Positions 3-60,644 of a stretch of 64,000 bases of DNA are shown piece after piece. The stretch is from Brevibacterium luteolum (GTDB lineage Bacteria; Actinomycetota; Actinomycetes; Actinomycetales; Brevibacteriaceae), in assembly GCF_013004595.1 (NCBI RefSeq), contig NZ_JABEMC010000005.1, positions 186,001 through 250,000 on the forward strand. The letters are read 5' to 3'. The notes under the pieces were generated by a model. That model searched no databases and was not told the origin of the DNA. It was given only the letters and a program-made list of their open reading frames with translations. The first letter of the stretch is position 1. Every line of letters starts with the position of its first letter. The position numbers were made by a program, and so were the translations under genes.

Positions 3-1880
3 GACCAGATCTTCGTGCCTGAGTACAACCTCGGCGCGATGGAGAACCCTGGCCTGGTGACCTTCACCGACTCCCTCATCTTCCGCGACAAGGTCACCCG
101 CGCCTCCTATGAGGCGCGCGCCAACGTCATCCTGCACGAGATGGCGCACATGTGGTTCGGCGACCTCGTCACGATGGCGTGGTGGGATGACCTGTGGCTC
201 AAAGAGTCGTTTGCCGACTACATGGGCGGGCTCGCCCTAGCCGAGGCGACCGAGTTCGATGACGGCTGGGTGACCTTCGCCCTGCAGCGCAAGGGCTGGG
301 CGTACCGGCAGGACCAGTACCCGACGACGCATCCGATCGTCGCCGACATCCCCGATGTCGAGGCCGCCAAGCTCAACTTCGACGGCATCACCTACGCCAA
401 GGGCGCCTCGGTGCTCAAGCAGCTCGTCGCCTACGTCGGCCAGGACGCCTTCATGGCCGGCACCCGCCAGTACTTCCGCGCCCACGAGTTCGGCACCGCC
501 ACCCTCACCGACTTCCTCGCAGCCCTCGAAGCCGCCGCCCCGGACCGCGATCTGGCCGCCTGGGCCGACGCGTGGCTGAAGACGACCGGGGTCTCCGAGC
601 TCAGCTTGGAGATCGACACGGATGACGAGGGCACGATCACCGCCGCCGAGGTGGTGCAGCGCAATTCCGGGACCGGCACCTCGGGTGCGGCAGACGCCGG
701 CGCCGAGGTAGTGCGCCCGCACCGGCTGCAGCTCGCCGGGTTCACACGGAAGGGCAAGGTGCTGGAGCTGACGCAGACGTGGGAGATCGACTTCGGAGAT
801 GCCCGCACCGAGGTGCCCGGGCTCGTCGGCACGAAGCGCCCGGATCTGCTGCTGCTGAATTACGGTGACGACGATTTCGTCAAGGTCCGCCTCGATGAGG
901 CCTCGAGGCAGACGGCGCTCAAGCATGTGTCCCGGTTCGCCGATCCGATGGACCGGGCGCTGGTGTGGTCGGCGCTGACGAATGCGATGCGCGACGGGCT
1001 ACTGCCGGTCACCGACTTCCTCACCGCCTACAGCCGGTCGCTTAGCCGCGAGACCCATGCCGGGATCTCGGCTGCGCTCATGCGCACGATGCTCACCGCG
1101 CTCGATGAGTGGCTGCCCGAGCGCTTCGTCGACCCGGCCCTCGACGGGCTGCTCGGTGTCAGCTTCGATGCGCTGGCGGCTTCGAAGCCGGGTTCGGATG
1201 AGCAGCTGGCGCTGGCCCGCACGCTGCTCTCCCTCGTGCTGCGCAGTGCGAAGGTCCGCACGTCGACCCCGCCGGTGCGTGCGGGCCGGGAGCTGGCCCA
1301 GGCGATGCTCGCCATTGAGGCCGGTTCCGATATGCGCCCGGACTTCCCGGGCCTGACGATCGACCATGCGCTGCGCTGGCATGCGCTCACCGCGCTGGCG
1401 ACCCTCGGCTGGGCCGATGTGCCGGATATCGACGCGGCGCTGGCGGCCGATCAGACCGGTTCGGGCCGGCTGCACGCCCTGACCGCCGAGGCCGCCCGGC
1501 CGCTGCCGATCGCCAAGCAGCGGGCGTTCACCGCAGCGACGAGTGATGAGTCGCTGAGCAATGACGTCATCTCTGCGCGCATCGCCGGGTTCACGGTGTC
1601 CTCCGGCCTGCCGATCACCGAGCCGTTCGTCGAGGAGTACTTCCGGCTGCTCGCAGGCTTCTGGGATCGGTCGATCGAGATCGCCCGCCGGCTCGTCAAA
1701 GAGCTCTACCCCAGCTGGTCGATCCGCCCGGATGAGGTGCTGCAGATGACCGATGACTGGCTGGAGTCGAACCCGGATGCCCCGGCCGCCCAGCGGCGCC
1801 TGCTCATCGAACGCCGCGATGACCTCGCCCGTTCGATCCGGCTCCGGGCCGCCGATGAGGACACCGCTGGCAAGCACTGA
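3..1880 (+). CDS. pepN: Aminopeptidase N (M1 family), 5'-truncated by the window edge
   Basis: GAMEN motif, HEMAH-x18-E zinc motif, FDGITYAKG; the frame is open from the window start. Confidence 0.95.
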   Translation, partial: DQIFVPEYNLGAMENPGLVTFTDSLIFRDKVTRASYEARANVILHEMAHMWFGDLVTMAWWDDLWLKESFADYMGGLALAEATEFDDGWVTFALQRKGWAYRQDQYPTTHPIVADIPDVEAAKLNFDGITYAKGASVLKQLVAYVGQDAFMAGTRQYFRAHEFGTATLTDFLAALEAAAPDRDLAAWADAWLKTTGVSELSLEIDTDDEGTITAAEVVQRNSGTGTSGAADAGAEVVRPHRLQLAGFTRKGKVLELTQTWEIDFGDARTEVPGLVGTKRPDLLLLNYGDDDFVKVRLDEASRQTALKHVSRFADPMDRALVWSALTNAMRDGLLPVTDFLTAYSRSLSRETHAGISAALMRTMLTALDEWLPERFVDPALDGLLGVSFDALAASKPGSDEQLALARTLLSLVLRSAKVRTSTPPVRAGRELAQAMLAIEAGSDMRPDFPGLTIDHALRWHALTALATLGWADVPDIDAALAADQTGSGRLHALTAEAARPLPIAKQRAFTAATSDESLSNDVISARIAGFTVSSGLPITEPFVEEYFRLLAGFWDRSIEIARRLVKELYPSWSIRPDEVLQMTDDWLESNPDAPAAQRRLLIERRDDLARSIRLRAADEDTAGKH

Positions 1881-2087
1881 ACGATCGCCAGCAGACCTCC
1901 CGCTGGGAGCCGGTGGTGACAGCCGTGTTCATTCGGCCAGATGACCCGCGGTGCCGGTTCGCTGGAGTGCGGCTCAGGCGCGACGACAGGAAGGCAGTCG
2001 AACCAGGCGACAGAACCACAGCGTAGAGAAACCCCACCGACCCCTGTCTGCGAATCGGGAGCGATGGGGTTGCTCGACGGCATCGGC

Positions 2088-2612
2088 TCATATTCTCGGG
2101 AAGCGGCGCTTCTCGTCGAACGGCTTGACTTCGAACATGTCGATCCCGCGATCTTTCAGCCCCTGAAGTACGCGTTCGCTGACGATCCACGCATAGCTGT
2201 GGGCTCGCTCGCGCCAGGCGTATGAGCTGATCTCGCTCGTACCCTCGGTGTTCTCAGCGAATCCGACGTAGCCCTCGACTCGCCCTTCGTTCACGCTGAA
2301 GAGGTCAACATCGAACGTTGAGCACCCTGTCACACCGAGGTCGGCCACTGCGTCGGCGAAGCGCTGGGACACAAGCGTCGGAGGACCACCCCAGAGAATA
2401 TCGCCGCGGCGCTTGCCGCGACTGTCGGTACTGCGTTCGAACCACACAGGAAACGGGATCTCATCGAGTTTCCCGTCAGCCACGACATCGAACACCTCTC
2501 GTCCGTCCTCAAGCGTGGGAGAGCCCAGATCCGGACGGCCCTCCCAGGTCGTGTGAATCCAGAAGTCCCGCTGAGAACTCAGCGGCAAGATTTTGTACCA
2601 CGCGGTCACCAT
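2088..2612 (-). CDS. Hypothetical protein, possibly Imm11/DUF1629-like immunity protein
   Basis: GAAGGAG RBS before ATG; duplicated motifs LVSQRFADAV...GVTG and IVSERVLQGL...GI resemble Imm11; atypical codon usage. Confidence 0.55.
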   Translation of the reverse strand: MVTAWYKILPLSSQRDFWIHTTWEGRPDLGSPTLEDGREVFDVVADGKLDEIPFPVWFERSTDSRGKRRGDILWGGPPTLVSQRFADAVADLGVTGCSTFDVDLFSVNEGRVEGYVGFAENTEGTSEISSYAWRERAHSYAWIVSERVLQGLKDRGIDMFEVKPFDEKRRFPRI

Positions 2613-2967
2613 GCACTCCTTCCGTCAACACTGATAGTACGTGTCGGAAGCGTTGTGCGTTTCTGCGCGCGGATCTGGAGACGCAGCCCGGCCACGGCTC
2701 CTGGAACAAACCGAACCGGGTCTGCGATCACGGATCGGCACCCGTGTGGCTGAGGTGCTGAGTGCGTTCCTCGCCTTCACAGGGGCGTGGCTTACTCCCG
2801 TGTGTGCGAGCTTCAAGCAGGCTCACGCAGCAGTCTGGCCGAGCCGCGTCCTGCTTCCGAAGCTCACGTTGAGAAGGCTGGCCGCCGAGTCTCCGTGTGT
2901 TGCCAGCGCCGAAACCGCAGAGCACCTGCGCACGGATGGAAGCGCCGGTGCGGTGTACGCATCTGCC

Positions 2968-5302: not shown

Positions 5303-6667
5303 TCACTTGGCTGCCTCGTCGAAGGCGGCTTCGAGCACATCGAAGGCATCAGCGAGCAGCTCATCGGAGATCGACAGCGGCGGCAGGAAGCGCAGCACGT
5401 TGCCGAAAGTTCCGGTGACGAGGACGAGCACGCCGTTCTTCGCGGCGTAGTCGGCCACGGCCTTCGCGAGCTCCGGCTTCGGCTCGGAGGTCTCGGCGTC
5501 GACGAGCTCAACGGCCTGCATGGCACCGCGGCCGCGGATGTCACCGATCTCCGGGTGGGCCGACTGGATCTTCGTCATCCGGTCGACGATCGTCTCACCG
5601 ATCGCAGACGCGCGCTCGACGAGGCCGTCGTTCTCGTAGGCCTCGATCGCACCGAGGGCTGCGGCCACGGCGGTCGGGTTGCCGCCGTAGGTGCCGCCGA
5701 GCCCACCGGCGCCCACAGCGTCCATGATCTCCGCACGGCCGGTGACAGCCGAGAGCGGCAGGCCGCCGGCGATGCCCTTGGCGGTGGTGACGAGGTCGGG
5801 CTCGATGCCCTCCCATTCGCTGGCGAACATCTTGCCGGTCCGGCCGAAGCCGGCCTGGACCTCATCCGAGATGAAGACGATGCCGTTCTTATTGGCGTAT
5901 TCGACCAGTGCCGGCAGGAAGCCCTCGGCCGGGACGATGAAGCCGCCCTCGCCCTGGATCGGCTCGATGAGGATCGCGGCGACGTTCTCGGCGCCGATCT
6001 GCTTGTCGATCATCGTCATGACGCGCTTGGCCGCGTCCTCACCGGAGACCTTGGTGCCGTAGGTGAGGTTGTCGCGGTACGGGTACGACATCGGTGCGCG
6101 GTAGACCTCGCCGGCCAGCGGGCCGAAGCCTGCCTTGTACGGGTGGGCCTTGGCGGTCAGTGCCATCGTGAGGTTGGTGCGGCCGTGGTAGGCGTGGTCG
6201 AAGGCGACGACGGCGTTGCGCTTAGTGTGGGCGCGGGCGATCTTGATCGCGTTCTCCACCGCCTCGGCACCGGAGTTGAACAGCGCCGAGCGCTTCTCGA
6301 AGCTGCCTGGGGTCAGGCGGTTGAGCGCCTCGGCGACCTCGACGTAACCCTCATACGGGTTGACCATGAAGCAGGTGTGGGTGAAGGCGCCGAGCTGCTC
6401 GGTGGCGCGCTCGACGACACGCTCATTGGAGTTGCCGACGGTGGTCACGGCGATGCCGGAGCCGAGGTCGATGATCTGGTTGCCGTCGATGTCCTTGAGG
6501 ATGCCACCACCGGCGGCGACGATGTAGGCCGGGAGGCTGACGCCGACGCCGCCTGCCACAGAGGCCTTGCGACGCGACTCGAGCTCCTGGGACTTCGGCC
6601 CGGGGATCTCAGTGACAAGTTTGCGTTCCTGCGGCAGTCCAGCGCCGCCCTTTTCCAAAGTGGTCAT
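5303..6667 (-). CDS. gabT: 4-aminobutyrate--2-oxoglutarate transaminase (class III PLP)
   Basis: FNSGAEAVENA, YHGRT, EPIQGEGG, DEVQAGFGRTG, TTAKGIAGG. Confidence 0.92.
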   Translation of the reverse strand: MTTLEKGGAGLPQERKLVTEIPGPKSQELESRRKASVAGGVGVSLPAYIVAAGGGILKDIDGNQIIDLGSGIAVTTVGNSNERVVERATEQLGAFTHTCFMVNPYEGYVEVAEALNRLTPGSFEKRSALFNSGAEAVENAIKIARAHTKRNAVVAFDHAYHGRTNLTMALTAKAHPYKAGFGPLAGEVYRAPMSYPYRDNLTYGTKVSGEDAAKRVMTMIDKQIGAENVAAILIEPIQGEGGFIVPAEGFLPALVEYANKNGIVFISDEVQAGFGRTGKMFASEWEGIEPDLVTTAKGIAGGLPLSAVTGRAEIMDAVGAGGLGGTYGGNPTAVAAALGAIEAYENDGLVERASAIGETIVDRMTKIQSAHPEIGDIRGRGAMQAVELVDAETSEPKPELAKAVADYAAKNGVLVLVTGTFGNVLRFLPPLSISDELLADAFDVLEAAFDEAAK

Positions 6668-6784
6668 ATCCGCATCGTAGACCCCGCACGCCCGTCGGGG
6701 CACGTCAGGTACCAGCACGCGAAACGCCGCCTCTCGTCTGGCTCCCGCACCCGAGGTGCCGGTCACGTTTCCGTGCCCGAGGTG

Positions 6785-7972
6785 TCAGCGGGCTCCGGGC
6801 AGCCGGCGCGGGTCGATGGCCGGGTTGCGTGGGATCCTGGGCGGGGCCTCGCGGGTGCGGGTGGGGGTGACGATGACCTCGGCGTTGGCGGCGATCCGCT
6901 CCTCGGCCTCCTTTCCTGACCCGTCTGCTTCGGTGACGCTGGTGGCGACCATCAGCTCGGCATCGACAGGCAGGCTGCGCTTGATGAGGGCCAGGGCGAT
7001 CGGCCCGAGCTCCCAGTGCACCGCCGCCGAGGTGACAGCGCCGACGGCCCGCTGGGCGCCGCGGACTTCCGCGTAGATCGGCGAGCCGGGCTCAGGCAGG
7101 GTATGGGCGGACCCGTCGAGGTGGAGGAAGACCAGCCGGCGCGGGGGCTGGCCGAGGTTGTGGACGCGGGCGACGGCCTCCTGACCGCGGTAGCAGCCTT
7201 TGGCGAGGTGAACGGCCGAGCGCAGCACATCGAGTTCGCCGACGAGGGCCTTGTGGTCGGCATCGGCTGGGCCGGGCCGCCAGGCTTCGATGCGCAGCGC
7301 TTCGAAGGCATCCCGGCCGACGACCTCGACGCCGTCGGCTGCCGGATCCCAGTCGAGCAGCTCCCCCACCGGCACGACGGCGATGCGCATATCGACGAGG
7401 TGGCCCGGATGTCCGGGGCTCGGCGTCGCCTGCTGGGCGGAGACGTCAAGCTCGGCGTCGACCGCGGCGTAGGTAGCCGAGCCTGCGCCGATGTTCGGCC
7501 ACGGGTCGTCGAAGACGAAGGCGGCCGGCAGGGAGGCCGGCGGCTCGCCGATGACACCGAGGCACTGGAAGTCGCTGCTGCGGTCGGTGAGTTCGATGCG
7601 CATCATGAACTTCATCGATTCGAGGAACGCGATCGCCTCAGCCGGGTCGGTCTCGCTTAAGAGCCACAGGGTCTCGCCGTCTTCGTAGAGCTTGAGCCAG
7701 TGCTCGATGTGCCCGGTCGGTGAGAGCACGAGCGTCTCGCTCGACTGCCCGGCAGTCAGGGTGTCGATCTTCTGGGTGGTGAGCGTGTTGAGCCAGTTGA
7801 GCCGGTCGGGGCCGGTGAGAGAGAGGACGCTGACAGACGACAGGTCGGCCACAGCCTTGCCGTCGGCCAGGCGGCGCTGTTCGCGCAGCGGGCTGCCGAG
7901 GTGGGCGACCTCGTTCTCCCGGTGCCCGGTTCCGAACACGGCGGCTGAACGGTTGAAGCGCAGGGCGTTCAC
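6785..7972 (-). CDS. ygfZ: YgfZ/GcvT-like folate-binding protein
   Basis: KGCYRGQE signature; RBS GGAG before GTG. Confidence 0.9.
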   Translation of the reverse strand: MNALRFNRSAAVFGTGHRENEVAHLGSPLREQRRLADGKAVADLSSVSVLSLTGPDRLNWLNTLTTQKIDTLTAGQSSETLVLSPTGHIEHWLKLYEDGETLWLLSETDPAEAIAFLESMKFMMRIELTDRSSDFQCLGVIGEPPASLPAAFVFDDPWPNIGAGSATYAAVDAELDVSAQQATPSPGHPGHLVDMRIAVVPVGELLDWDPAADGVEVVGRDAFEALRIEAWRPGPADADHKALVGELDVLRSAVHLAKGCYRGQEAVARVHNLGQPPRRLVFLHLDGSAHTLPEPGSPIYAEVRGAQRAVGAVTSAAVHWELGPIALALIKRSLPVDAELMVATSVTEADGSGKEAEERIAANAEVIVTPTRTREAPPRIPRNPAIDPRRLPGAR

Positions 7973-10577: not shown

Positions 10578-11495
10578 ATGGTTCCATCCGCTCCCGAGGC
10601 GGTTCTCACCGAAGCCGCGGAGCTCACCGATGAGGTGCGTGCGCTGCTGTCGCAAGCCGCTGCCGCTGACGGCATCGCCCCGATCTCCGATGGGCTCTTG
10701 GAGGCCGCCGGTGACGACCCGTGGATCATGCTCGAAGCCCGGGCCGGTGATGAGCTCATCGGCTTCGGCATCGCCGCAGCCCAAGGCGAGCGCGGTGCGC
10801 TCGAAGCCGTCATCGCGCCCGCCGCCCGCGGCAACGGCTACGGGCGCACCCTCATCGATGCGCTCATCGCACGCGCCGGCCACCCGGTGTGGATGTGGTC
10901 GCACGGCGACCATCCGGCCGCCGCGACGATCGCGACGACCCACGGCTTCTCCCGCGCTCGTGAGCTGCTGCAACTGCAGACCGGGCCAGTGGGAGAGCTC
11001 TCGCTGCCCGACCGCCCGGCCCCGGACGGGGTGACGCTGCGCTCCTTCGCCCCCGGTGATGAGCCCGGCTGGCTGGCGGTCAACAACGCCGCCTTCGACT
11101 GGCACCCCGAACAGGGCCACCAGGAGCTTGCCGACATCGAGGCGATCGTCACCGCCCCCGGCTTCGACCCGGATTCGGTCATCATCGCCACCACTGCTGG
11201 CGAGGATGGCCGCGAGCAGATCATCGGATTCCACCAGACGAAGCTCTCCGACGACCACCCGTCGGGTCAGCGGGTCGGGGAGGTCTACGTCATCGCCACC
11301 GACCCCGCCGTCCATGCCCGCGGCGTCGGCCAGGCGCTGACCGTGGCCGGGATGCGCTACCTCATCGACGCCGGTGCCGAGTTCATCGAGCTCTACGTCG
11401 AATCCGACAACGACCCGGCCCGCCGGCTCTACGCCCGGCTGGGCTTCGACCGGGAGATCATGCACGTCAGCTACGCCCCACCGCAGGAGTCCTGA
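10578..11495 (+). CDS. mshD: Mycothiol synthase (tandem GNAT)
   Basis: [44 protein letters not shown]. Confidence 0.93.
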
Positions 11496-19560: not shown

Positions 19561-19608
19561 AGACGACCGTTCCCGAGGTGGTGGACACCACCTCGGGAAC
19601 GGTCGTCT
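19561..19608. terminator. Perfect 23-bp inverted repeat between convergent pstB and pit, built from two copies of the 14-bp motif
   Basis: AGACGACCGTTCCCGAGGTGGTG-GA-CACCACCTCGGGAACGGTCGTCT. Confidence 0.8.
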
Positions 19609-21657: not shown

Positions 21658-22263
21658 TCAGTCGAGGCGGCCTTGGGTGTAGGCCCGCGCGGCGGCGGCG
21701 AGGTCGTCTGCGAGGCGTTCGAAATCCCCCGCGCCCGAGGTGTCGGCTGGGCTCTCGGCCCGACGTCCACGGGCGGTGACGGTGATGAAGGCTGCGGCCC
21801 GGGCCAGTGCGATGGCGTAGTCGCCGCGGAAAGCGCCGGCGAGAATCTCATCGGCGGCCCGGGCAACCTCGTCTGGACCCGGCGGGGAGGCGATGCCGGC
21901 GATCACCTCGGGTGCGGTGCGGCCGTCCCGGCCGGACGAGAACCAGTCCGCGGCCTGGCGCGGCGAACGGCGGATCCACTCGCGGATGGCGTACAGGCGC
22001 CACAGGGAACCGGGCAGGCTCACCGCCGGGGCGCTGGCCCACACCTCGGCGATGGCTTCCAGACCGAACTCCTCGGCCAGGTGGACGAAACGGGCGGTGG
22101 CGGCGTCGTCGCGGTCAGGATCAGTGCTGGAGTCGCGGTGCGGGGAGATGAGCAGGGCAGCCGTCGAGTGCGCGAGCTCGGTGCGCGCGGCAGGATCGGG
22201 GGCGGTGTCGAGCGGATCCATGTCCGGCATCGGCAGGGGCTTGTGAAAACGAGGCTGTGACAC
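21658..22263 (-). CDS. Conserved actinobacterial hypothetical protein
   Basis: SLPGSLWRLY and F-x-GDYAIALARAAAF blocks typical of a conserved Micrococcales family. Confidence 0.75.
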   Translation of the reverse strand: MSQPRFHKPLPMPDMDPLDTAPDPAARTELAHSTAALLISPHRDSSTDPDRDDAATARFVHLAEEFGLEAIAEVWASAPAVSLPGSLWRLYAIREWIRRSPRQAADWFSSGRDGRTAPEVIAGIASPPGPDEVARAADEILAGAFRGDYAIALARAAAFITVTARGRRAESPADTSGAGDFERLADDLAAAARAYTQGRLD

Positions 22264-38633: not shown

Positions 38634-40465
38634 CGCTTGCTTCCGTGCTCATCGCCAACCGCGGGGAGATCGCCGTGCGCATCGCCCGCGCGGCAGCCGA
38701 CCACGGGCTGCGCTCAGTGGCCGTGTACTCCGATGCCGACGCCGAGGCCCTGCACACCCGCATCGCCGACGAGGCCTACCGGCTGCCGGGCACCGCCCCG
38801 GCCGAGACGTACATGAACATCCCGGCCCTCATCGAAACCGCGCTGCGCGCCGGTGTCGAGGCCGTCCACCCCGGCTACGGGTTCCTCGCCGAGAACGCTG
38901 AGTTCGCTGCCGCCGTCGCCGAGGCGGGACTGACGTGGATCGGCCCGTCGCCTGAGGTGATCGAGAAGCTGGGCAACAAGGTCACCGCCCGCGAGATCGC
39001 ACTCTCCGTCGACGCCCCGCTCGCGCCCGGTTCCGATGGCCCGGTCGAGGACTGGGAGGAGGCGCACGCCTTCGCTGAGGAGCACGGGCTGCCGATTGCG
39101 ATCAAGGCTGCCTACGGTGGCGGCGGACGCGGCCTCAAAGTCGTCCATGAGCTCGCTGACGTCGAGGATGCCTTCGCGGCCGCCGGGCGCGAGGCGGTGG
39201 CCGCGTTCGGCCGCGGTGAGTGCTTTGTCGAGAAATTCCTCGTCCGCCCCCGGCACGTCGAGGCGCAGATCCTGGCGGACACGCACGGGAACACGGTCGT
39301 GATCGGGCTGCGGGACTGCTCGCTGCAGCGGCGCAACCAGAAGCTCGTCGAGGAGGCACCGGCGCCGTTCCTCACCTCCGAACAGGAGGCGACGATCCGT
39401 GAGGGCGCGGTCAAGATCTGCCAGGCTGCCGGGTACGTCGGCGCCGGTACGGTCGAGTTCCTCATCGCCGAAGACGGCACCATCAGCTTCCTGGAGGTCA
39501 ACACGCGCCTGCAAGTCGAGCATCCGGTGACCGAGATGACGACCGGCGTCGATCTTGTCGGCGAGCAGTTCCGGATCGCCGCCGGCCTGCCACTATCCTT
39601 CGCCGACGGCGATGCTTCTGACGGCAATGCCGCATGTGGGGACAGCGAGATCACTGTGCCGCAGCTCGGGCATGCGATCGAGTTCCGGCTCAACGCCGAA
39701 GACGTCGCCAACGGCTATGTCCCCTGCCCGGGCACCATCACCCGATTCGAGGCCCCGACCGGCCCGGGCATCCGCGTCGACACCGGGGTCACGAGCGGGT
39801 CGACGATCCCGGGTGCCTATGACTCGATGATGGCCAAGCTCATCGTCTTCGGTGCCGACCGCGACCAGGCGATCACGCGTGCCCGGCAGGCGCTGCGCGA
39901 ACTCGTCATCGAGGGAGTCGCCACGGTCGTGCCGTTCCACCAGGCAGTGCTCGAACACTCTGACTTCGCCGATGACTTCGCCGTCCACACGACCTGGATC
40001 GAAAACGACTTCGCCGAGCAGTTCGAACGCACCGAGGTCTTCGCCGATCAACGTGACGGTCAGCCGTTCACCCGGTTCGGCGTCGAACTCGATGGCAAGC
40101 GCGTCGAGCTCGGTCTGCCTGCTGAGCTGCTGAGCCGGCTCGCCAGCCCAGCCCCAAGCGGTGCGTCCACCGGCGAGGCCCAGCCTGCCGGCACCACGGG
40201 CGCGGACACCGAGACCGAGGCGAGCAGCACCGACAACGGCGCCGACGCCTCGGGAGCGGAGGTCACGAGCCCATATGCCGGCAGCTTCGTGACGTGGAAG
40301 GTGGCAGACGGCGACGCGGTCGAGGCCGGGCAGACGGTCGCGGTCATCGAGGCGATGAAGATGGAGTCCAATGTCTCCGCCCCGTCCGGCGGAACGATTG
40401 CATGTGAGTCCCTGGATGCAGGTGACAGCGTTTCGGCAGGTCAGGTGCTCGCGCGGATCTCCTGA
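38630..40465 (+). CDS. Biotin carboxylase / biotin carboxyl carrier fusion
   Basis: LIANRGEIAVR, HPGYGFLAEN, EVNTRLQVEH, EAMKM biotinylation site. Confidence 0.95.
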   Translation: MTLASVLIANRGEIAVRIARAAADHGLRSVAVYSDADAEALHTRIADEAYRLPGTAPAETYMNIPALIETALRAGVEAVHPGYGFLAENAEFAAAVAEAGLTWIGPSPEVIEKLGNKVTAREIALSVDAPLAPGSDGPVEDWEEAHAFAEEHGLPIAIKAAYGGGGRGLKVVHELADVEDAFAAAGREAVAAFGRGECFVEKFLVRPRHVEAQILADTHGNTVVIGLRDCSLQRRNQKLVEEAPAPFLTSEQEATIREGAVKICQAAGYVGAGTVEFLIAEDGTISFLEVNTRLQVEHPVTEMTTGVDLVGEQFRIAAGLPLSFADGDASDGNAACGDSEITVPQLGHAIEFRLNAEDVANGYVPCPGTITRFEAPTGPGIRVDTGVTSGSTIPGAYDSMMAKLIVFGADRDQAITRARQALRELVIEGVATVVPFHQAVLEHSDFADDFAVHTTWIENDFAEQFERTEVFADQRDGQPFTRFGVELDGKRVELGLPAELLSRLASPAPSGASTGEAQPAGTTGADTETEASSTDNGADASGAEVTSPYAGSFVTWKVADGDAVEAGQTVAVIEAMKMESNVSAPSGGTIACESLDAGDSVSAGQVLARIS

Positions 40466-41274: not shown

Positions 41275-42087
41275 TTAGGGGACCTGGAACTCGGCATCCC
41301 GGGCGTCAGTGATGAGCATCTTCCCGGGTGAGTGGGCGATCGCGATCTCCGGGCGGGCGGCCAGCAGCGCGGCTTGCGGGGTCACCCCGCAGGCCCAGAA
41401 CACCGGCAGATGCCCATCCGGGATCGTCACCGCATCGCCGTAGTCAGGGTTGCCGAGGTCGCGGATGCCGATCTCTGCCGGGTTGCCGATGTGCACCGGT
41501 GCTCCGTGCACGGCCGGGTAGCGGGAGGTGATGCGCACCGCCTCGGCGACCTGGTTCGCCGGCAGCGGGCGCATCGACACAACAAGCGGGCCTGAGAAGA
41601 TCCCGGCCGGTTCGGTGTCGATCGAGGTGCGGTACATCGGCACGTTGACGTTCTGGCTGATGTGAGCGATGTCAATGCCGGCGGCCAGCAGCGCGGTCTC
41701 GAAGGTGAACGAGCAGCCGATGAGGAAGCTGACGATGTCGTCTCGCCAGAACGCGGTGGCATCCGTGACGGTCTCGGCGAGCTCACCGTTCCGGTAGATC
41801 CGGTAGGCCGGCACATCGGTGCGGATATCCCCGCCTTGAAGCAGCGGCGAGCTCGTCTGCCCGGCTTCGAGCACTCCGACGATCGGCATCGGCTTGGGGT
41901 TGCGCTGGGCGAAGAGCAGGAAGTCGAAGGCATGCTCGCGCGGCACAGCAAGCAGGTTCGTCTGCGTGAACCCCGGGCACAGGCCGGCGGTCGGCCGGTC
42001 GAGACCGGCCCGGAAGGCCGCCCTGGCCTGCGCAGGTGAGGTGAACGGGGAGCCCGCCGGTGCCTCGGGAGCGGTGTCCATCGTCAT
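41275..42087 (-). CDS. DUF1445/YcsI putative hydro-lyase (D-glutamate cyclase family)
   Basis: QRNPKP, DIRTDVPAY, GCSFTFE, HGAPVH, FWACGVTPQ, HSPG. Confidence 0.92.
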   Translation of the reverse strand: MTMDTAPEAPAGSPFTSPAQARAAFRAGLDRPTAGLCPGFTQTNLLAVPREHAFDFLLFAQRNPKPMPIVGVLEAGQTSSPLLQGGDIRTDVPAYRIYRNGELAETVTDATAFWRDDIVSFLIGCSFTFETALLAAGIDIAHISQNVNVPMYRTSIDTEPAGIFSGPLVVSMRPLPANQVAEAVRITSRYPAVHGAPVHIGNPAEIGIRDLGNPDYGDAVTIPDGHLPVFWACGVTPQAALLAARPEIAIAHSPGKMLITDARDAEFQVP

Positions 42088-43474: not shown

Positions 43475-43552
43475 GAGCGCGAGGGGAGGGGGTGTGGACA
43501 GGGACCGCTGCGCGGTTCGGTTCGCGCCGGCGCCGAGGCGGTGGCTGGGTAG

Positions 43553-44943: not shown

Positions 44944-45612
44944 ATGAGCACCAGCAGAGACCACATCGTCGAGGCGATCGTCACCGTCATCGCTGCAGGC
45001 GGCATCGAGAAGGCCACCGTCCGCACGGTCGCCAGTCAGGCCGGGGTGTCGATCGGCGCGGTCCAGCACCACTTCCCCAGCAAGGCCGCGATGCTGACCG
45101 CAGCGATGGAGGCGATCTCGGATGCTGTCACCGCCGACATCGAGGACTACCTCAGCACTTTGGAACCAGCCGGCACTCCTGCCGAAGCGGCCGGGCAGGC
45201 CGCCTCAGTGCTGCGCCACCTGTCCTTCATGCTCTGCTCGATCAGCGAGGACGACCTCGCTGCCGCCGGCATCTGGCTCGACTTCGTCGCCCTGTCCCGT
45301 GTCACCCCCTCACTCGCCGAGATCCACGCCCGCACATGGGCCCAGCTGCGGAAGCAGATGAGCGAACTCGTCACGGCAGCCCACCCGCACCATCCCGATC
45401 CCGAGGCGGCGGCCGGGTGGGCGCTGGCGACCTTCGACGGCATCGCCGTCTCCAGGGTGGCCGAGCCGCAGTTCATGACCGGCCCGCGGGCTGCAGCCCT
45501 GGCTGAGCGGACACTGGCGGCGATCGCCACGGAGGCAGTCGAGGCCCCCGGAACCGGCACCTCGGGAGCGGAGCCAGCCACCGCCTCGGCACCGGTGACC
45601 GGCACCGTCTGA
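44944..45612 (+). CDS. TetR (BetI-like) regulator
   Basis: TVRTVASQAGVSIGAVQHHFPSK; GAAGGA RBS. Confidence 0.92.
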   Translation: MSTSRDHIVEAIVTVIAAGGIEKATVRTVASQAGVSIGAVQHHFPSKAAMLTAAMEAISDAVTADIEDYLSTLEPAGTPAEAAGQAASVLRHLSFMLCSISEDDLAAAGIWLDFVALSRVTPSLAEIHARTWAQLRKQMSELVTAAHPHHPDPEAAAGWALATFDGIAVSRVAEPQFMTGPRAAALAERTLAAIATEAVEAPGTGTSGAEPATASAPVTGTV

Positions 45613-45807
45613 ACCACCGCCTCGGGCACGGGGATGAGCGGACACGATTTGGACACAATCACCGGTGCCGCACAGCCGCCAGTGACTTGTGACATGCTTC
45701 ACGATAAGCTCATCGGCACACCGCACTTTCGGTGGGCGCCGGAGCACCGGCGCCGGGTTCGCACCACCCGGTGACAACCTCACCGCACCGCAACCAGGAG
45801 GAATTCC

Positions 45808-46639: not shown

Positions 46640-46689
46640 CCGCACCCGAGGCGGGCCGACGCACTGACGCCGGCCCGCCTCGGGCACGG
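46640..46689. repeat. Hairpin formed by two inverted copies of the 14-bp motif
   Basis: CCCGAGGCGGGCCG...CGGCCCGCCTCGGG after the SBP gene. Confidence 0.75.
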
Positions 46690-46782: not shown

Positions 46783-47574
46783 GTGGCAATGACTATGCGC
46801 CAGCGGGCACGCATGTCCCGCGGCATCCAGTACGCGATTCTCATCATCGCCGTCATCGTCGCGGCATTCCTCGCCGACTGGGGCACGATCTTCGGGAAGT
46901 TCTTCAACCCGCAGGTCATGGCCGACCAGTTCCCCGGCATCATCACGATCGCGCTGAAGAACACCCTCATCTACACCGCCCTGGGCTTCGTGCTCGGACT
47001 GGCGCTGGGCATCCTGCTCGCGCTCATGAAGATCTCCTCCGTCGGGCCCTACCGGTGGCTCTCGACCCTGTACATCGAGTTCTTCCGCGGGGTCCCGGCT
47101 CTGCTTGTGTTCATCGCGCTGGGCTACGGCATCCCATACGCCTTCGGCATGCGGATGGACACGTACCTCACCGTCATGCTTGCGCTGGGCATCGTGTCGT
47201 CTGCCTACATCGCCGAAACCCTGCGCGCCGGCCTGCAGGCCGTACCCAAGGGCCAGTACGAGGCGGCCCGCTCACTGGGCATGACGCACTCGCGGGCGAT
47301 GATCACGATCGTCATCCCGCAGGCGTTCCGCATCATCCTGCCGCCGCTGACGAACGAGATCATCCTCATGACGAAGGACTCCTCGCTCATCTACCTGCTC
47401 GGCCTTGCCGCCAGCCAGTACGAGCTGACGAAGTTCGGCCGCGAGGCGATCACCGCTCCCGAGGCGGGCCTGACCCCGCTGGTGGTCGCCGGTGCCTGCT
47501 ACCTCGTCATCACCGTGCCGCTGGGCATCCTGGCCCGGAGGTTCGAGTCCCGTACCGCCAAGATCAAGAAGTAG
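46783..47574 (+). CDS. Polar amino-acid ABC transporter permease
   Basis: YIEFFRGVP, AETLRAG, GQYEAARSLG, KDSSL. Confidence 0.94.
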   Translation: MAMTMRQRARMSRGIQYAILIIAVIVAAFLADWGTIFGKFFNPQVMADQFPGIITIALKNTLIYTALGFVLGLALGILLALMKISSVGPYRWLSTLYIEFFRGVPALLVFIALGYGIPYAFGMRMDTYLTVMLALGIVSSAYIAETLRAGLQAVPKGQYEAARSLGMTHSRAMITIVIPQAFRIILPPLTNEIILMTKDSSLIYLLGLAASQYELTKFGREAITAPEAGLTPLVVAGACYLVITVPLGILARRFESRTAKIKK

Positions 47575-48468
<894 letters not shown>

Positions 48469-48471
48469 GCA

Positions 48472-48511
48472 ACCACCGCCTCGGGAACGGGACACCCGCC
48501 TCGGGAACGGG
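48472..48511 (+). repeat. Two tandem copies (20-bp period) of the 14-bp motif
   Basis: CGCCTCGGGAACGG at 48477 and 48497. Confidence 0.85.
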
Positions 48512-53455: not shown

Positions 53456-53527
53456 GTCGATTGGCTCCGGCGGCCCGGGGGCTGCCGTTCCCGAGGCGGT
53501 GGCCGACGGCCGACGCTGCGCCCGGCG

Positions 53528-54778: not shown

Positions 54779-54846
54779 GCACTGCCCTTTCCGCACTCTG
54801 CGCGATCACCCGCACTCGTTGCCCGAGTGCCAACGGCAGCCCGTTG

Positions 54847-54932: not shown

Positions 54933-55059
54933 CGCACGTGAAGCGGTTCCGACCTGAACCCAGAACAACCCGGATTCTCCATCCAGACGACGGCGGGCGC
55001 GCTGCGCGCCGGACGGCACGGCCCTGCACGCGGGCTGGAATCTGTGATTGAGTGTGGGT

Positions 55060-56796
55060 ATGACGCGCATCACCTCCACTGCTGACTCCTCCCCTGCCGC
55101 CTCCGCCCAGGACTCCGCCGCCGGCCCCGATGCCCCCGCCTCCCGTTCGGCTGGGCACCTCATCGTCGCCCAGCTCGAAGCCGAGGGCGTCGAGCGCATC
55201 TACTGCGTGCCCGGCGAGTCCTACCTCAATGTGCTCGACGGCCTGCACGATTCGACCATCCGCACCATCACCTGCCGGCAGGAGGCCGGTGCCGGGTTCA
55301 TGGCACTGGCCGAGGGCCGGATGACCGGCCGGCCGGGCATTGCGATGGTCACCCGCGGGCCGGGTGCGGCCAATGTCATGATCGCCGTGCACACCGCCTA
55401 CCAGGACGCCACGCCTCTCGTCATCTTCGCCGGCCTCATCCCCACCGACCACCGCGGCCGCGAGGCCTTCCAGGAGTTCGATCTGGCTGGCTGGTTCGGC
55501 ACGACGGTGAAGAAGACCCTCATCCTCGACCACCCCGATGAGGCCGCAGCCCTCGTCGCCGATGCGATGCACACCGCCGCCTCCGGCCGGCCCGGCCCGG
55601 TCATCGTCGGTCTCCCCGAGGACCCGCAGCTCATCACCACCCAGGCGGACACCGTCACCCCGCGCCCCGTTCCCGAGGTGGTGCCCACCGCCGCACAGAT
55701 CGCCTCAGTCGCCGAGGCGGTCGCCAGAGCCCGCCGCCCGGTGCTCATCGTCGGCGGCGAGCGCTGGGATGAGCAGTCCTCCCGCACGGTCGCTGACTGG
55801 GCGGCCGGGCTCGGGATGGGCATCATCGCCGACTTCCGCGCCTACGACGGCATCGACCATGATGAGCCGCACTACCTCGGTGCGCTCGGCTTCGGTTCGG
55901 CACCCCTGACCCGCAAGGCCTTCGACGAGGCCGACCTGCACGTCTACCTCGGCTGCCAGCGCACCGATGTCTCAACGAACTCGTACTCGATCGGCTGCAG
56001 CCCGGACCACACGATCGTCATCAGCCCTGATCCTGACCTGCATGCACACTTCGGGCCGGTCGATGAGCAGATCATCGCCACCACCCGTGGCTTCGCCCAA
56101 GCACTCACCAGCACTGACGCAACGACCGGCACCGAGGCGACCACCGCCTCGGGAACGGAGACGAACCTGCCCGACTGGGTCACCGAGACCCGGCAGCGGT
56201 TCCAGCAGTGGCGCGAGATCCCAGCACCGACTGGTGATGAGGACCCGGCCTATGTTGATATGGACACCGCCTTCGGCGAGGTGCGCCGCCTGCTGCCGGA
56301 TGATGCGATCATCACGTATGGGGCGGGCAACTACTCCGGCTGGGCCTCGCGCTACCTGCCGGTGCACAGCTTCCCGTCAGTGCTCGGCCCGCGCAACGGG
56401 GCGATGGGCTTCGGGATGCCGGCGGCGGTGGCGGCTGCGCTCGTGTGCCCGGACCGCCCGGTGCTCGCCGTCGCCGGCGACGGCTGCTTCCTCATGAACG
56501 GCCAGGAGTTCGCCACCGCGGTCGCCCATGACCTGAATATCACCGTCATCATCAACGACAACAGCGTCTACGGCACGATCGTCGGCCACCAGGAGCGCGA
56601 CTATCCCGGCCGGCCGGAAGGCACTGGGCTGAAGAATCCGGACTTCGCCGCCTACGCCACCGCCTTCGGCGGCGCCGGATTCAGTGTGACCCGCACTGAG
56701 GACTTCGCGGCCGCCTTCGAAGCGGCGCTGAACCATCCGGGTCCTGCGCTCGTGCAGGTGCGCACTGACCCGGCGATCCGCTTCACCCGCAGCTGA
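55060..56796 (+). CDS. ThDP-binding enzyme (acetolactate synthase-like)
   Basis: VPGESYL, RQEAGAGFMA, VTRGPGAAN, GAMGFG, GDGCFLMNGQE...NDN. Confidence 0.92.
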   Translation: MTRITSTADSSPAASAQDSAAGPDAPASRSAGHLIVAQLEAEGVERIYCVPGESYLNVLDGLHDSTIRTITCRQEAGAGFMALAEGRMTGRPGIAMVTRGPGAANVMIAVHTAYQDATPLVIFAGLIPTDHRGREAFQEFDLAGWFGTTVKKTLILDHPDEAAALVADAMHTAASGRPGPVIVGLPEDPQLITTQADTVTPRPVPEVVPTAAQIASVAEAVARARRPVLIVGGERWDEQSSRTVADWAAGLGMGIIADFRAYDGIDHDEPHYLGALGFGSAPLTRKAFDEADLHVYLGCQRTDVSTNSYSIGCSPDHTIVISPDPDLHAHFGPVDEQIIATTRGFAQALTSTDATTGTEATTASGTETNLPDWVTETRQRFQQWREIPAPTGDEDPAYVDMDTAFGEVRRLLPDDAIITYGAGNYSGWASRYLPVHSFPSVLGPRNGAMGFGMPAAVAAALVCPDRPVLAVAGDGCFLMNGQEFATAVAHDLNITVIINDNSVYGTIVGHQERDYPGRPEGTGLKNPDFAAYATAFGGAGFSVTRTEDFAAAFEAALNHPGPALVQVRTDPAIRFTRS

Positions 56797-56827: not shown

Positions 56828-58522
56828 ATGCGACTCGACACGATCATCCGCAATGCCCGCATCCACACGATGGCCGGTGATGGCGCGCCCGCGCCCGAGG
56901 CGGTGGGGATCGCCGGTGGCCGGATCGTCGCCTTCGATGATGAGCTGGAGGGCTCGTACGCCTCGGCCGGCGAGGTCGTCGATGCCGCCGAGCTGACCGG
57001 TGATGCAGGCGGTGCTGGCGGTGGTGCGGGTGCGGGTGTGCCGACGGTGGTGCCCGGGTTCATCGACGCGCACTGTCACACGACGTGGTTCGGGCTGACG
57101 CTTGCCAGTGTCGATGTCGAGAACTGTCCCGGCGGCCTCGATGAGGTCTACGGCCGGCTGGCCACGGCTGCCGAGAAGCTGCCTGACGGTGAGTGGGTGC
57201 AGGCGACCGGGTACTCCCACCACGACTACGGTGGCGCCTATCCGGACCTCACCGTCCTCGACCGGATCACCGGTGGCCGGCCACTGTTCATGCGGCAGGT
57301 GAGCGGCCATTCGGCGATCGTCAACACCGCCGCCCTGCGTGCTGCCGGAATGCTCGAACCCGGCTACACGGATCCGGCCGGCGGCAAAGTCGTCCGCGAC
57401 GCCGACGGCCGCCCGACCGGGCTGGTCGAGGAGACCGCGCAGACGCAGGTGCAGGATCTCATCCGGCCGTATTCGGTCGAGACGATCGTCCACGCCCTCG
57501 ACCTGGCCACCGCCCACTACGCGAAGGAGGGGATCACGAGCTTCGGTGAGGCCGGGATCGCCGCAGGCTGGATCGGGCATTCGCCGCTGGAGGTCTACGC
57601 CTACCAGCAGGCCCGCCAGGCCGGGCTGCTGCGGGCGCGTGCCCAGCTCATGCCCGTCATCGACGCCCTCCACCCAATCCACGGCCACGCCGCCGACACC
57701 CCGGAACTCGGGCTCGACCTCGGCATGGTCACCGGGTTCGGGGATGACGAGATCCGCATCGGCCCGGTCAAGATCTTCATGGACGGCGCACTGTCGGGCC
57801 GAACCGCGGCACTGCACGAGCCCTATGTCGGCCAGTCCGATGCCGGGTACCTGCAGGACGACCCCGAAGTGCTGCGCGCCCAGACCCTGGCCGCCTACCG
57901 GTCCGGCTGGTCAGTGGCCGTCCACGCGATCGGCGACCGGGCTGTCGATGAGGCGATTCACAACATCACCGCAGCCGTCGATGAGTGCGGGCCACGGGCG
58001 TTTCCCAACCGGATCGAACACGCCGGGATGATCCGCACCGAGCAGCTGCCTGTCCTTGCCGAGTACGGCATCGCGGTGACCCCGCAGGCGGCGTTCTTCG
58101 ACAACATCGGCGACGGCATGCTCGACGCGATCGGTGAGGAGCGCGCCCACCTGCTCTACCGCGGCCACTCCTTCCTCGAGGCCGGCGTGACGCTGGCCGG
58201 CAGCTCGGATCGGCCGTGCGCGGAGGGCAATGTGCTGCGCGGCATGCAGTTGTTCATGACCCGCCTGACCCGCTCCGGCCGCGTCTCAGGACCCAGCCAC
58301 GAACGCCTGTCCGCGCACGAGGCGCTGGCAGCCTACACCTCGGGCGCGGCTGCCGCGATGGGCATGACCGGCACACATGCCGGCCGGGCCGGTGAGCTCA
58401 CCCGCGGGGCGCTGGCCGACCTCGTCATCGTCACCGGTGACCCGCTGGACACCGCTGCCGAGGCGGTGACCGGGCTGGGTGTGAAGGCGACGATGCGCGG
58501 CGGGCAGTGGACGCACCGGTGA
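56828..58522 (+). CDS. YtcJ-like amidohydrolase (Amidohydro_3)
   Basis: PGFIDAHCH, SGHSAIVN, KIFMDG, HAIGD, RIEHA, GSSD. Confidence 0.92.
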   Translation: MRLDTIIRNARIHTMAGDGAPAPEAVGIAGGRIVAFDDELEGSYASAGEVVDAAELTGDAGGAGGGAGAGVPTVVPGFIDAHCHTTWFGLTLASVDVENCPGGLDEVYGRLATAAEKLPDGEWVQATGYSHHDYGGAYPDLTVLDRITGGRPLFMRQVSGHSAIVNTAALRAAGMLEPGYTDPAGGKVVRDADGRPTGLVEETAQTQVQDLIRPYSVETIVHALDLATAHYAKEGITSFGEAGIAAGWIGHSPLEVYAYQQARQAGLLRARAQLMPVIDALHPIHGHAADTPELGLDLGMVTGFGDDEIRIGPVKIFMDGALSGRTAALHEPYVGQSDAGYLQDDPEVLRAQTLAAYRSGWSVAVHAIGDRAVDEAIHNITAAVDECGPRAFPNRIEHAGMIRTEQLPVLAEYGIAVTPQAAFFDNIGDGMLDAIGEERAHLLYRGHSFLEAGVTLAGSSDRPCAEGNVLRGMQLFMTRLTRSGRVSGPSHERLSAHEALAAYTSGAAAAMGMTGTHAGRAGELTRGALADLVIVTGDPLDTAAEAVTGLGVKATMRGGQWTHR

Positions 58523-58582: not shown

Positions 58583-59197
58583 ATGGGCTATCAGACACTG
58601 CGTCGGGAGGCGCATGCCGAGATCGAGATCAAGCGCTCGCGCTTCATCGCCCGCGTCGTTCCAGTCGAGACCGAGGAGGCCGCCCGTGCGGTCATTGAGG
58701 AGCAGCGGGCTGCGCATCCGAAGGCTCGCCATCACTGCACGGCCTTCATCCTCGATGCCGATGGGCGCACACAGCGCTTCAACGACGACGGCGAGCCGGC
58801 CGGTACGGCCGGTGCCCCGATCCTGGAGGTGCTCACCGGCCATGAGCTGACGTATGTGGTGGCGGTGGTGACCCGGTACTTCGGCGGCACGCTGCTGGGC
58901 GCCGGCGGGCTCGTGCGCGCCTACGGCGGGGCGGTCTCCGCGGCACTCGAGGACGCGCAGGTGGTGACCCGTACGCTGCTGACCCCGGTGACGGTTGAGT
59001 TGAACTATGCCACGGCGGCTGCCGCCCAGCGGCAGGCCCAGCAGGCCGGATGGGAGGTCATCGACAGCGACTACAGTGCCAGCGTGCGGCATGTCTTCGC
59101 GGTGCCAGCTGACGAGGTGGAAGCGTGTGCAGCGATGCTCGCTGACGTCTCGGCAGGACTCGCCGCTCCCGAGGTGGGGGATCCGGTCTATCGCTAG
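58583..59197 (+). CDS. yigZ: YigZ/IMPACT family protein
   Basis: IKRSRFIA, DDGEPAGTAG, VTRYFGGTLLGAGGLVRAY. Confidence 0.93.
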   Translation: MGYQTLRREAHAEIEIKRSRFIARVVPVETEEAARAVIEEQRAAHPKARHHCTAFILDADGRTQRFNDDGEPAGTAGAPILEVLTGHELTYVVAVVTRYFGGTLLGAGGLVRAYGGAVSAALEDAQVVTRTLLTPVTVELNYATAAAAQRQAQQAGWEVIDSDYSASVRHVFAVPADEVEACAAMLADVSAGLAAPEVGDPVYR

Positions 59198-59319: not shown

Positions 59320-59820
59320 TCAGTCGAGGCTGGCGATACGGGCGACCTGTGCATTGGTGAGCATGACGAGGTCATCGGGACGCAGTTCGATCTCCAAGCC
59401 GCGGCGGCCGGCTGAGACGTAGACGGTGGAGAAGTCCTGAGCGGAGAGATCCATGACCACCGGCGAGGAGTTGCGCTGGCCGAAGGGGCTGACGCCGCCG
59501 ATCATGTAGCCGGTGCGGCGCTCGGTTTCGGCGATGCCGGTCAGCTGAGCTTTCTTGCCGCCGCACACGCCGGCGATCGCCTTGAGATCAAGCTGTCCGG
59601 AGACGGGCACAAGTGCGACGACTGGTTCCTGATCGACGTGGATCATGAGCGTTTTGAGGATTCTGCCGGATTCGACGCCGAGCTTCTCTGAGGCTTCGGT
59701 GCCGTAGCGGCGGCGGGCCGGATCGTGGTCGAACTCATGAACCGAGTAATCGATGCCGGCGAGGTTGAGCACGCGCAGGGCGGGGGTAGCCGCGGCGTGT
59801 GATCGAGCTGCAATCGACAT
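59320..59820 (-). CDS. ybaK: Cys-tRNA(Pro) deacylase
   Basis: TPA, ILKTL, TGYMIGGVSPFGQ, SAGRRG. Confidence 0.93.
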   Translation of the reverse strand: MSIAARSHAAATPALRVLNLAGIDYSVHEFDHDPARRRYGTEASEKLGVESGRILKTLMIHVDQEPVVALVPVSGQLDLKAIAGVCGGKKAQLTGIAETERRTGYMIGGVSPFGQRNSSPVVMDLSAQDFSTVYVSAGRRGLEIELRPDDLVMLTNAQVARIASLD

Positions 59821-60006
59821 GGGTGTTCGCTGCCTCCTGCCTGCCGGGTCAGTCGGGGACCTGACGGTTCGGCGGGCCGGTGTGTAGGTGCTGATCGGAC
59901 GGGTGGACGACAGCTACTTTAAATGACCGATCAGTCCGATGACCAATCTTTTGTCCGTCCCCGACAATCCGGTAGGAGATCAGGGGCGGATCCAGAAGCG
60001 TTTTTG

Positions 60007-60426
60007 TCAGCCCCAGCCGAGTTCGTGGAGGCGTTGGTCATCGATGCCATGATGGTGGGCGATCTCGTGGACGATCGTGGTGAGGATCTCCTCGCGCAGC
60101 CGTTCGGCCGTACGGGAGAACTCGATGAGGTTGATGCGGTAGAGGAAGATGACGTCTGGGGGCACAAAGGCCCACGGGTCGCCGCGCTCGGTCAGCGGGA
60201 TGCCGTCGTAGACACCGAGGATGTCCGGTTCCTCCGGCGGGGGCTCGTCCTCGGCGAAGAGGACGACATTGTCCATGTAGTCGAGCACACCTTCCGGCAG
60301 CTCGCCCATCACCTCGTCGACGAGGTCGTCGAAGATCGCGTACAGCGCATCGAAGGTCGCATCGTCGATCGGCTCGAGTGACTCGTGCTCGCCGGGACCC
60401 GCATGATCAGGGTGACCGCATGTCAT
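60007..60426 (-). CDS. Zincin-like metallopeptidase (DUF1025)
   Basis: LGVYDGIPLTER, HEIAHHHGIDD; start uncertain. Confidence 0.88.
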   Translation of the reverse strand: MTCGHPDHAGPGEHESLEPIDDATFDALYAIFDDLVDEVMGELPEGVLDYMDNVVLFAEDEPPPEEPDILGVYDGIPLTERGDPWAFVPPDVIFLYRINLIEFSRTAERLREEILTTIVHEIAHHHGIDDQRLHELGWG

Positions 60427-60644
60427 GGCCTCAGTCTACTGAGACACCTCAGTCCACTGAGGCGAGCCGACTGGCAGGCGGAGTGAGCGAGGGAGCGCGG
60501 ACCACCTCGGGTGCGGTGAGCGACATCACAGGAAAAGTCCGCCGACCCGTTTTGCAAATCCACCGAGCGGTGCGCTAAGCTATCGGAGGTTCATGCGCCG
60601 GACAAACCGGAGCTGACAGCCTCATCGGGAGACTGATGCGGGAG

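Follow-up and report, generated by a model that had tools for sequence, protein, structure and literature searches.

To our knowledge, only two families, both Gram-negative, have established sequence-specific tags that mark self DNA, and uptake gated by methylation is established for Campylobacter. Other abundant, short, dispersed words include the repetitive extragenic palindromes (REP, which form hairpins) and bacterial interspersed mosaic elements (BIME) with their REP-associated tyrosine transposases (RAYT), as well as Chi, the FtsK-orienting polar sequences (KOPS), and the highly repetitive motif of Lactococcus, whose abundance within genes is unexplained. Here, we investigated a 14-bp word in a 64,000-nucleotide stretch of the Brevibacterium luteolum genome (assembly GCF_013004595.1, contig NZ_JABEMC010000005.1, positions 186,001 to 250,000; hereafter the window). 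It is part of a real, genus-wide, and apparently undescribed word system with a candidate methylase writer. A preliminary description of the window listed 26 exact copies and put the expectation at about 0.1; all of its coordinates and strands are exact, and 100 dinucleotide shuffles give 0.07 expected copies.

The closest described systems are the DNA uptake sequences (DUS) of the Neisseriaceae with their dialects and the uptake signal sequences (USS) of the Pasteurellaceae, as covered in the available parts of PMC3630211, PMC1939737, and bioRxiv 10.1101/2025.10.24.684340. DUS are read by the sequence-specific receptor ComP, and ComN/PpdA is the predicted receptor for USS (PMC12616744, in part). 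Like DUS and USS as these sources present them, the word is non-palindromic, lies on both strands, sits in permissive coding regions and between genes, uses few reading frames, and has a fixed core with clade dialects. Some copies are paired in inverted orientation behind genes, others overlap as dyads (a Simonsiella feature too), and the word is gained by point change. Over-representation beyond null models, absence from recently acquired DNA, and intact competence genes complete the likeness. However, the host is a Gram-positive actinobacterium with Flp/Tad pili, inverted pairs are few, spacing is uneven, density is lower near the terminus, no receptor candidate was found, and the core co-occurs with a methyltransferase. 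Because the terminator-pair feature fails and no receptor is known, we have not filed the word as a member of DUS/USS.

In Campylobacter, uptake depends on CtsM methylation of RA(m6A)TTY (m6A, N6-methyladenine), a proven tag that is a 6-bp palindrome (PMC8627207 and PMC10046745, in part). As with CtsM, a solitary methyltransferase occurs here in a lineage with competence genes, and self DNA would be tagged by a methylated word. The enzyme differs in being a truncated Type III modification (Mod) subunit, and the core is asymmetric, extends to 8–24 bp, and is a predicted target. The highly iterated palindrome HIP1 of cyanobacteria spans 8 bp and in many genomes recurs with a kilobase periodicity (PMC4390886 and PMC5861425, in part). 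In those accounts, HIP1 shares hyper-abundance, synonymous-site conservation, a link to an orphan methyltransferase, and variants in some lineages with our word. However, the methyltransferase site of HIP1 lies inside HIP1, whereas here the target is suggested by co-occurrence (11/12 vs 0/5 samples); furthermore, our word is asymmetric, reaches 24 bp, and is not periodic. Unlike REP/BIME and Chi/KOPS, it comes with no RAYT, no palindromic covariation, and no replichore polarity. We found no published description of the word or of a Brevibacterium CCGAGG methylome, although REBASE, subscription journals, and supplements may hold the target.

We counted the 14-mer across the source genome (2,965,761 bases; 2.97 Mb, 67% GC, 21 contigs), labeled G000 in this analysis, with relatives labeled G0xx. 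Mycothiol synthase and further markers place this genome among the actinobacteria, and the best named hit of its polyphosphate kinase is a Brevibacterium protein (74%). The exact count is 537, with 270 copies on the forward strand and 267 on the reverse. Our own gene calls (2,521 genes, 86% coding) place 370 in coding sequences (CDS), 166 in intergenic DNA, and one at a boundary; intergenic DNA thus holds 31% of the copies in 14% of the sequence, and genes hold 69%. The two in-frame readings noted earlier for the window, (T/A)SG(T/A) and (A/V)PE(A/V), account for 337 of the 370 CDS copies. Only 17 CDS copies are expected from synonymous-codon shuffling, 19 from dicodon resampling, and 3.5 from codon shuffling. 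We therefore rejected a codon or peptide artefact, as the protein-keeping nulls are too low (17–19 vs 370) and a stricter null agrees. The tetrapeptides encoded by the word are themselves over-represented about 2.4-fold ([TA]SG[TA], 390 observed vs 159 expected), and order-swapped control peptides are not. With the codon and dipeptide nulls failing, mobile DNA free of sites, and neither an Rfam match in the window nor a RAYT/Y1 transposase in the genome, the genome-wide self-signature with a DUS/USS-like distribution proposed in the preliminary description survives the three refutations named there and is partly supported; a function in uptake would be a further, putative step.

The 14-mer is real but is the strongest part of a longer word, so its size was initially underestimated. 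An iterated matrix gives a full word of 24 positions and 22 bits, ASSYGRCCAC-CRCCTCGG-nnn-CGG, which is asymmetric and not palindromic. Positions 9–11 of the 14-mer form a loose spacer whose 3-bp length is strict (1,288 sites vs 49–339 for nine other lengths). At a score of at least 17 bits the genome holds ~1,070 sites, or about one per 2.8 kb, and at 18 bits there are 944 sites vs 0 with the reversed matrix. The soft 5′ flank is alike in coding and intergenic copies and resembles a weak inverted half-site; 16 overlapping dyads occur, all at one offset. A hairpin within the single word was rejected, as the putative stem shows no base-pair covariation (p = 0.63). The fixed frame with free spacer positions and an exact 3-bp spacer is better explained by protein reading than by template copying. 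Judged from sequence, the shape of the word would fit a protein footprint and not a stem or copied template.

Comparison with relatives, which the preliminary description had suggested, revealed dialects across Brevibacterium. An 18-mer with the CCAC flank has 99–177 copies in G000, G047, G057, and G072 and 0–5 in the other 68 family genomes; the flank in G022 is AGGG. Under the stricter null, the top two-strand word is CCGAGGCG in G000, G057, G022, G017, G048, G046, and G063, CCGAGGTG in G058, CGCCGAGG in G051 and G020, and CCGAGGCC in G065; for this last word, whole-genome counts agree. These rankings draw on 67–227 kb of coding sequence per sample and not on whole genomes, with G083 and G010 left out. 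The sister-lineage dialects share the hexamer CCTCGG/CCGAGG. Relaxed cores reach 361 per Mb in G000; of 12 further Brevibacterium genomes, 10 have 49–156 per Mb and two, G011 and G061, are low. Outside the family, 188 genomes from an order-wide draw have at most ~37 per Mb. The strength of the word therefore differs several-fold among congeners.

We searched three methyltransferase families in five genomes for a partner of the core. A single gene, under the heading METHYLTRANSFERASE in our analysis (Table 1), is common to all five; the C5 and N6_Mtase families are absent from G058 and were rejected. Both by sequence and by an alignment-based fold prediction, its closest solved relatives are Type III Mod subunits (EcoP15I, 4zcf and 6k0w; Mbo45V, 7dsu). 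Like these, the 474-residue enzyme is beta-class with intact DPPY and FAGSGT motifs and an inserted target-recognition domain, which it keeps in common with full-length Mod proteins (~46% identity). However, it is truncated at both ends relative to full-length relatives, missing their C-terminal domain and most of their N-terminal segment, and it is solitary: no restriction (Res) gene was seen beside it, and its neighbors are lhgO and housekeeping genes. The PF19778 profile matched in 0/5 genomes, a weak test whose control was scarcely detected. The nearest named homolog is from B. luteolum (92%). The gene is a single-copy, syntenic core locus, adjoining lhgO in 24/26 loci outside the G000 clade, with a ratio of nonsynonymous to synonymous divergence (dN/dS) of 0.06–0.21 within the clade. 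At this locus, G000 and G057 are unusually similar (dS 0.16).

Orthologs occur in 66/69 genus genomes and 0/3 sister-genus genomes and are absent from G011, G061, and G080. The enzyme-less clade is nested in the genus, and another gene abuts lhgO in G011 and G080, so the absence is a loss; the same clade shows only weak word enrichment. A CCGAGG-containing 8-mer ranks 1–3 among 15,000–26,000 two-strand words in 11/12 enzyme-bearing samples, whereas its ranks in the five enzyme-less samples are 8, 18, 28, 208, and 213 (0/5 in the top three). The target-recognition domain changes in step with the dialect clades. Type III Mod enzymes act on short asymmetric sites, of which they mark a single strand (PMC8259958, in part), and CCGAGG holds only one adenine. 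Beside the enzyme, an HNH-domain gene (G000:C19:72704-74338) lies between the methyltransferase and lhgO in G000, G047, and G057; the more distant relatives that were examined do not have it there. At G000:C12:407599-410260, beside the cell-division cluster, an N6 methyltransferase gene adjoins a possible endonuclease gene, and a Type I system is found at G000:C15:359-365 kb.

We examined how sites are kept and gained by aligning G000 to its relatives. Against G047 (162 kb), 27/40 G000 sites are intact, and against G057 (138 kb), 21/32. Positions 1, 4, 7, 10, and 13 are third codon positions in both main frames; spacer position 10 differs in 31–46% of ungapped sites, vs 0–11% for positions 1, 4, 7, and 13. 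Similarly, TCG changes synonymously at 2/22 sites within the word vs 138/588 elsewhere. Gains are ungapped substitutions, some multi-base, or tandem slippage duplications of a variable unit. A gap spanning the whole word was seen at 1/52 G057 sites and 0/39 G047 sites, or once among 91 sites of relatives; against more distant relatives, many copies sit in indel-bearing linkers. A tract of ~40 kb shared with G047 has 26/31 genes at a fourfold-site divergence of at most 0.075, vs 3/90 elsewhere. As read from these divergences, the tract is an interspecies introgression; related species do exchange homologous DNA, and the similarity of G000 and G057 at the methyltransferase locus points the same way. 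It lies at G000:C1:334-373 kb, from the menaquinone genes to rpoB, at about one-third of the usual synonymous divergence from G047. Near the terminus, G000:C16:90-94 kb has a dS of 0.34–0.49 to G047 and G072, seemingly above the C1 region and in parallel with the lower word density there.

Across the genome, the word is missing from recent mobile DNA, and density in recently acquired DNA is far from equal to that elsewhere. The longest word-free gap (46 kb) contains a siphovirus prophage with 0 sites vs 16.8 expected. Contig C7, which looks mobile in carrying transposase and helicase/relaxase-like genes, is likewise without sites (9.2 expected). The prophage is neutral to the core (10 vs 11 expected), and restriction-type avoidance by phage was rejected on this ground; in phage AGM1, any enrichment is mild at most (10 vs 5.3). 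The prophage (G000:C1:41.6-88 kb) seems complete, and its terminase shares 73% identity with the one encoded by Brevibacterium phage AGM1. The preliminary description noted copies directly behind stop codons; genome-wide, intergenic copies are concentrated within 60 bp downstream of stop codons and in convergent gaps. Tandem arrays of 15–33-bp units also occur. Genes of the most typical codon usage are site-poor (11 per 100 kb vs 43–50 in the middle deciles). We observed no replichore polarity (leading strand, 151/287 exact and 303/602 matrix sites) and rejected a Chi/KOPS-type reading for lack of this strand bias. A simple Fourier test on draft contigs, of limited power, gave no long-range period, with the spectral peak below the mean null maximum; only 3-bp frame phasing was present, and no helical phasing.

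The genome carries the competence genes that the preliminary description proposed looking for, namely comEA/comEC, dprA, and two tad loci, while the REP transposase proposed alongside them is missing. Transformation of Micrococcus luteus requires the same set of competence genes (PMC4322843, in part). Purifying selection acts on the comE and tad genes (dN/dS 0.07–0.25). In G051, the tad2 pilin genes seem interrupted by unrelated DNA, though the word is enriched in that genome.

The explanation that we favor, at a little short of an even chance, and the simplest one to cover all features, is that the word is a protein-read self-tag that accumulates by biased homologous DNA exchange, through uptake or recombination (molecular drive), as do DUS and USS. 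A reader in the Flp/Tad–ComEA/ComEC uptake path, or in a later recombination step, would prefer word-bearing DNA, and through this preference copies arising by point change or slippage would spread. The solitary Mod-type methyltransferase found across the genus would act on the shared hexamer, most simply by placing m6A at CCGAGG; the tag would then consist of a methyl mark plus lineage-specific flanks. We lean slightly toward the hexamer being the enzyme's target. That reader drive and a methylated core act together is a more tentative suggestion. It is similarly doubtful, though possible, that Brevibacterium domesticated the methylase half of a Type III restriction system as the writer of a self-tag (methylated CCGAGG), and that a competence-linked reader whose flank preferences differ by lineage drove 8–24-bp dialects into genomes and proteins across the genus. 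If true, a Gram-positive phylum would have an uptake signal made of methylation plus sequence, uniting the DUS, CtsM, and HIP1 phenomena. More broadly, the word bears on the question of why one word fills some genomes and what part orphan methyltransferases play. The question is directly testable in a culturable, food-relevant genus that offers graded dialects, a candidate for the writer, and losses and exceptions that arose naturally. Should the mark or the word be required for uptake, either would offer a simple handle for the genetics of dairy Brevibacterium.

Several observations weigh against this explanation. About half of the DNA uptake enhancing sequences (DUES) lie in predicted terminators (bioRxiv 10.1101/2025.10.24.684340, in part), and only 16 inverted exact pairs within 80 bp occur among our 537 copies, counted without a terminator predictor. 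Spacing is slightly clumped (coefficient of variation 1.10) and not even, and density is 1.3–1.8-fold lower in the terminus region in every compartment. The genes comEC and the tad ATPases are found in 72/72 family genomes, word-bearing or not, and the comEA/EC and dprA loci are site-free (1.9 and 1.3 expected). No receptor candidate emerged in the tad1, tad2, and comE loci, where tad minor pilins and ComEA were compared by eye across dialect groups, and uptake that depends on sequence is not known to us from any Gram-positive bacterium. The link between enzyme and word amounts to about one gain, one loss, and one exception, among kin that are not independent. The exception is G018, where the enzyme looks intact and the 8-mer shows no enrichment (rank 58). 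In a first, smaller sample, CCAGGG led the hexamers of G018, a result that may reflect noise or a change of specificity. Finally, enrichment of the bare hexamer is only 1.15–1.4-fold for most samples (G058 reaches 2.1), and its synonymous sites show no conservation (16/54 changed). Because synonymous conservation holds for the extended word and not for the bare hexamer, it counts against models that select a 6-bp site alone.

We weighed four other explanations. An intracellular chromosome protein (nucleoid-associated, segregation, or repair, possibly the methyltransferase itself) could bind the word under ordinary purifying selection; we consider this unlikely but the most serious rival. The 24-bp, 22-bit footprint with its weak second half-site and dyads at one offset would suit such a protein, as would the conservation of the extended word and the lower density near the terminus in every compartment, and HIP1 has been argued to serve chromosome architecture (PMC5861425, in part). 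However, there is no periodicity, spacing is uneven, the terminus is neither avoided nor the sole location, and congeners differ several-fold in strength. Furthermore, copies forced on proteins ([TA]SG[TA], 390 vs 159) and tandem expansion imply a force that favors more copies almost anywhere, which argues against this rival. An improbable alternative is a ratchet like that proposed for HIP1 and its orphan methyltransferases (PMC4390886, in part), where the solitary enzyme methylates the core and methyl-directed repair or conversion keeps the methylated strand, with no role in uptake. The co-occurrence of enzyme and core and the parallel between recognition domain and dialect clades fit such a ratchet. 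It should nevertheless enrich and protect the 6-bp target, which is barely enriched and not conserved; it leaves the 22-bit word unexplained, and the resident prophage is neutral and phage AGM1 at most mildly enriched.

Drive might instead act through another transfer route, such as conjugation-like movement of the chromosome, or packaging or translocation by a system for which the words are starting points. Drive theory is independent of route, the low-divergence tract shared with G047 is long at ~40 kb, and the tandem arrays resemble translocase-binding repeats. However, no candidate translocase or gene-transfer agent turned up, although no systematic search was made, and both contig C7 and the prophage are site-free; we regard this route as quite improbable. 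The possibility of a minimal REP, raised in the preliminary description, fares worst, and a REP-like miniature repeat spread by a transposase is very improbable. The excess of exact copies between genes (31% in 14% of the sequence), some long hairpins, and the many copies in linkers with indels would fit such a repeat. Still, G000 has no Y1_Tnp/RAYT match (the control found 6/14), stem covariation is lacking (p = 0.63), 69% of copies lie in genes, whole-word gaps are confined to the single G057 case, unit lengths vary, and multi-base gains are ungapped. The REP-type reading is therefore largely refuted.

Within the window, our gene calls place 15 exact copies in genes and 11 between genes. The hairpin-forming inverted pairs (19567/19589 and 46640/46676) and the tandem pair (48477/48497) first noted there are real. 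See Table 1 for all window sites.

Table 1. Exact and relaxed copies of the word in the window and the location of the solitary methyltransferase gene (window positions unless a contig is given)
Feature	Position	Strand	Context
Word	667..690	+	14-mer 677-690; in frame within pepN
Relaxed matrix site	6250..6273	+	Not caught by 14-mer
Word	6745..6768	-	Between YgfZ-like gene and gamma-aminobutyrate (GABA) transaminase gene
Word	6771..6794	-	Tandem partner of 6745; directly after YgfZ-like stop codon
Word	10588..10611	-	Antisense, mshD N-terminus; encodes SAPEA
Inverted pair	19567..19602	.	14-mers 19567-, 19589+; long hairpin between convergent pstB and pit; without U-tract
Word	21729..21752	-	Sense in gene 21658-22230
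Word	21894..21917	+	Antisense in gene 21658-22230; gapless alignment with relatives without word
14-mer	29168..29181	-	GntR-family gene, minor frame
14-mer	30263..30276	+	Antisense, oxidoreductase gene, minor frame
Word	36866..36889	+	Sense in pxpA
Relaxed matrix site	37690..37713	+	
Relaxed matrix site	38913..38936	-	
Relaxed matrix site	39183..39206	-	
Word	40236..40259	+	Sense, near C-terminus of biotin carboxylase gene
Relaxed matrix site	42051..42074	+	
Relaxed matrix site	43527..43550	-	
Relaxed matrix site	45395..45418	-	
Three-word cluster	45548..45631	+	14-mers 45558, 45618, relaxed copy 45572; TetR gene end
Inverted pair	46640..46689	.	46640-, 46676+; hairpin 3′ of ABC substrate-binding gene; without U-tract
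Word	47453..47476	-	Antisense in ABC permease gene
Tandem pair	48467..48510	+	20-bp unit, 14-mers 48477, 48497; after stop codon
Word	53485..53508	-	Intergenic, just outside accessory DUF4143 gene
Word	55667..55690	-	Antisense in thiamine pyrophosphate (TPP)-enzyme gene
Word	56135..56158	+	TPP-enzyme gene linker; top score of window, 31.8 bits
Word	56889..56912	-	Antisense, near amidohydrolase gene N-terminus
Word	58326..58349	+	Sense in amidohydrolase gene
Relaxed matrix site	58452..58475	-	
Word	59163..59186	-	Antisense, C-terminus of YigZ-family gene
14-mer	60503..60516	+	Intergenic, ahead of tRNA cluster
Solitary Mod-like methyltransferase	G000:C19:71088-72512		Outside window

Foreign-looking segments of the window had been described as free of the word. 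This holds for the window methyltransferase (49585-50316), DUF4143 (53528-54796), and integrase (61075-62127) genes, whose identities were confirmed and none of which has an exact or matrix site, while the Imm11 gene named with them was not located among the proteins scanned. Contigs of other strains skip the window methyltransferase segment (49371-50236) in 2/4 runs and have the DUF4143/AAA segment (53457-55023) swapped for ~1.3 kb of other DNA, clearly in 3/4. An Rfam scan of the window gave four tRNAs and nothing else, so a known RNA family was rejected. The tyrosine integrase (61075-62127, minus strand) adjoins three tRNAs (60645-60988), and GC drops to 62%; this region is likely the edge of an integrated element. 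No 14-mer copy lies between 21918 and 29167. Just after the tRNA at 23472, a protein with a GmrSD C-terminal (HNH-type) domain and an Excalibur domain is encoded at 23973-25130 (plus strand), and it is probably a secreted nuclease, as predicted from these domains.

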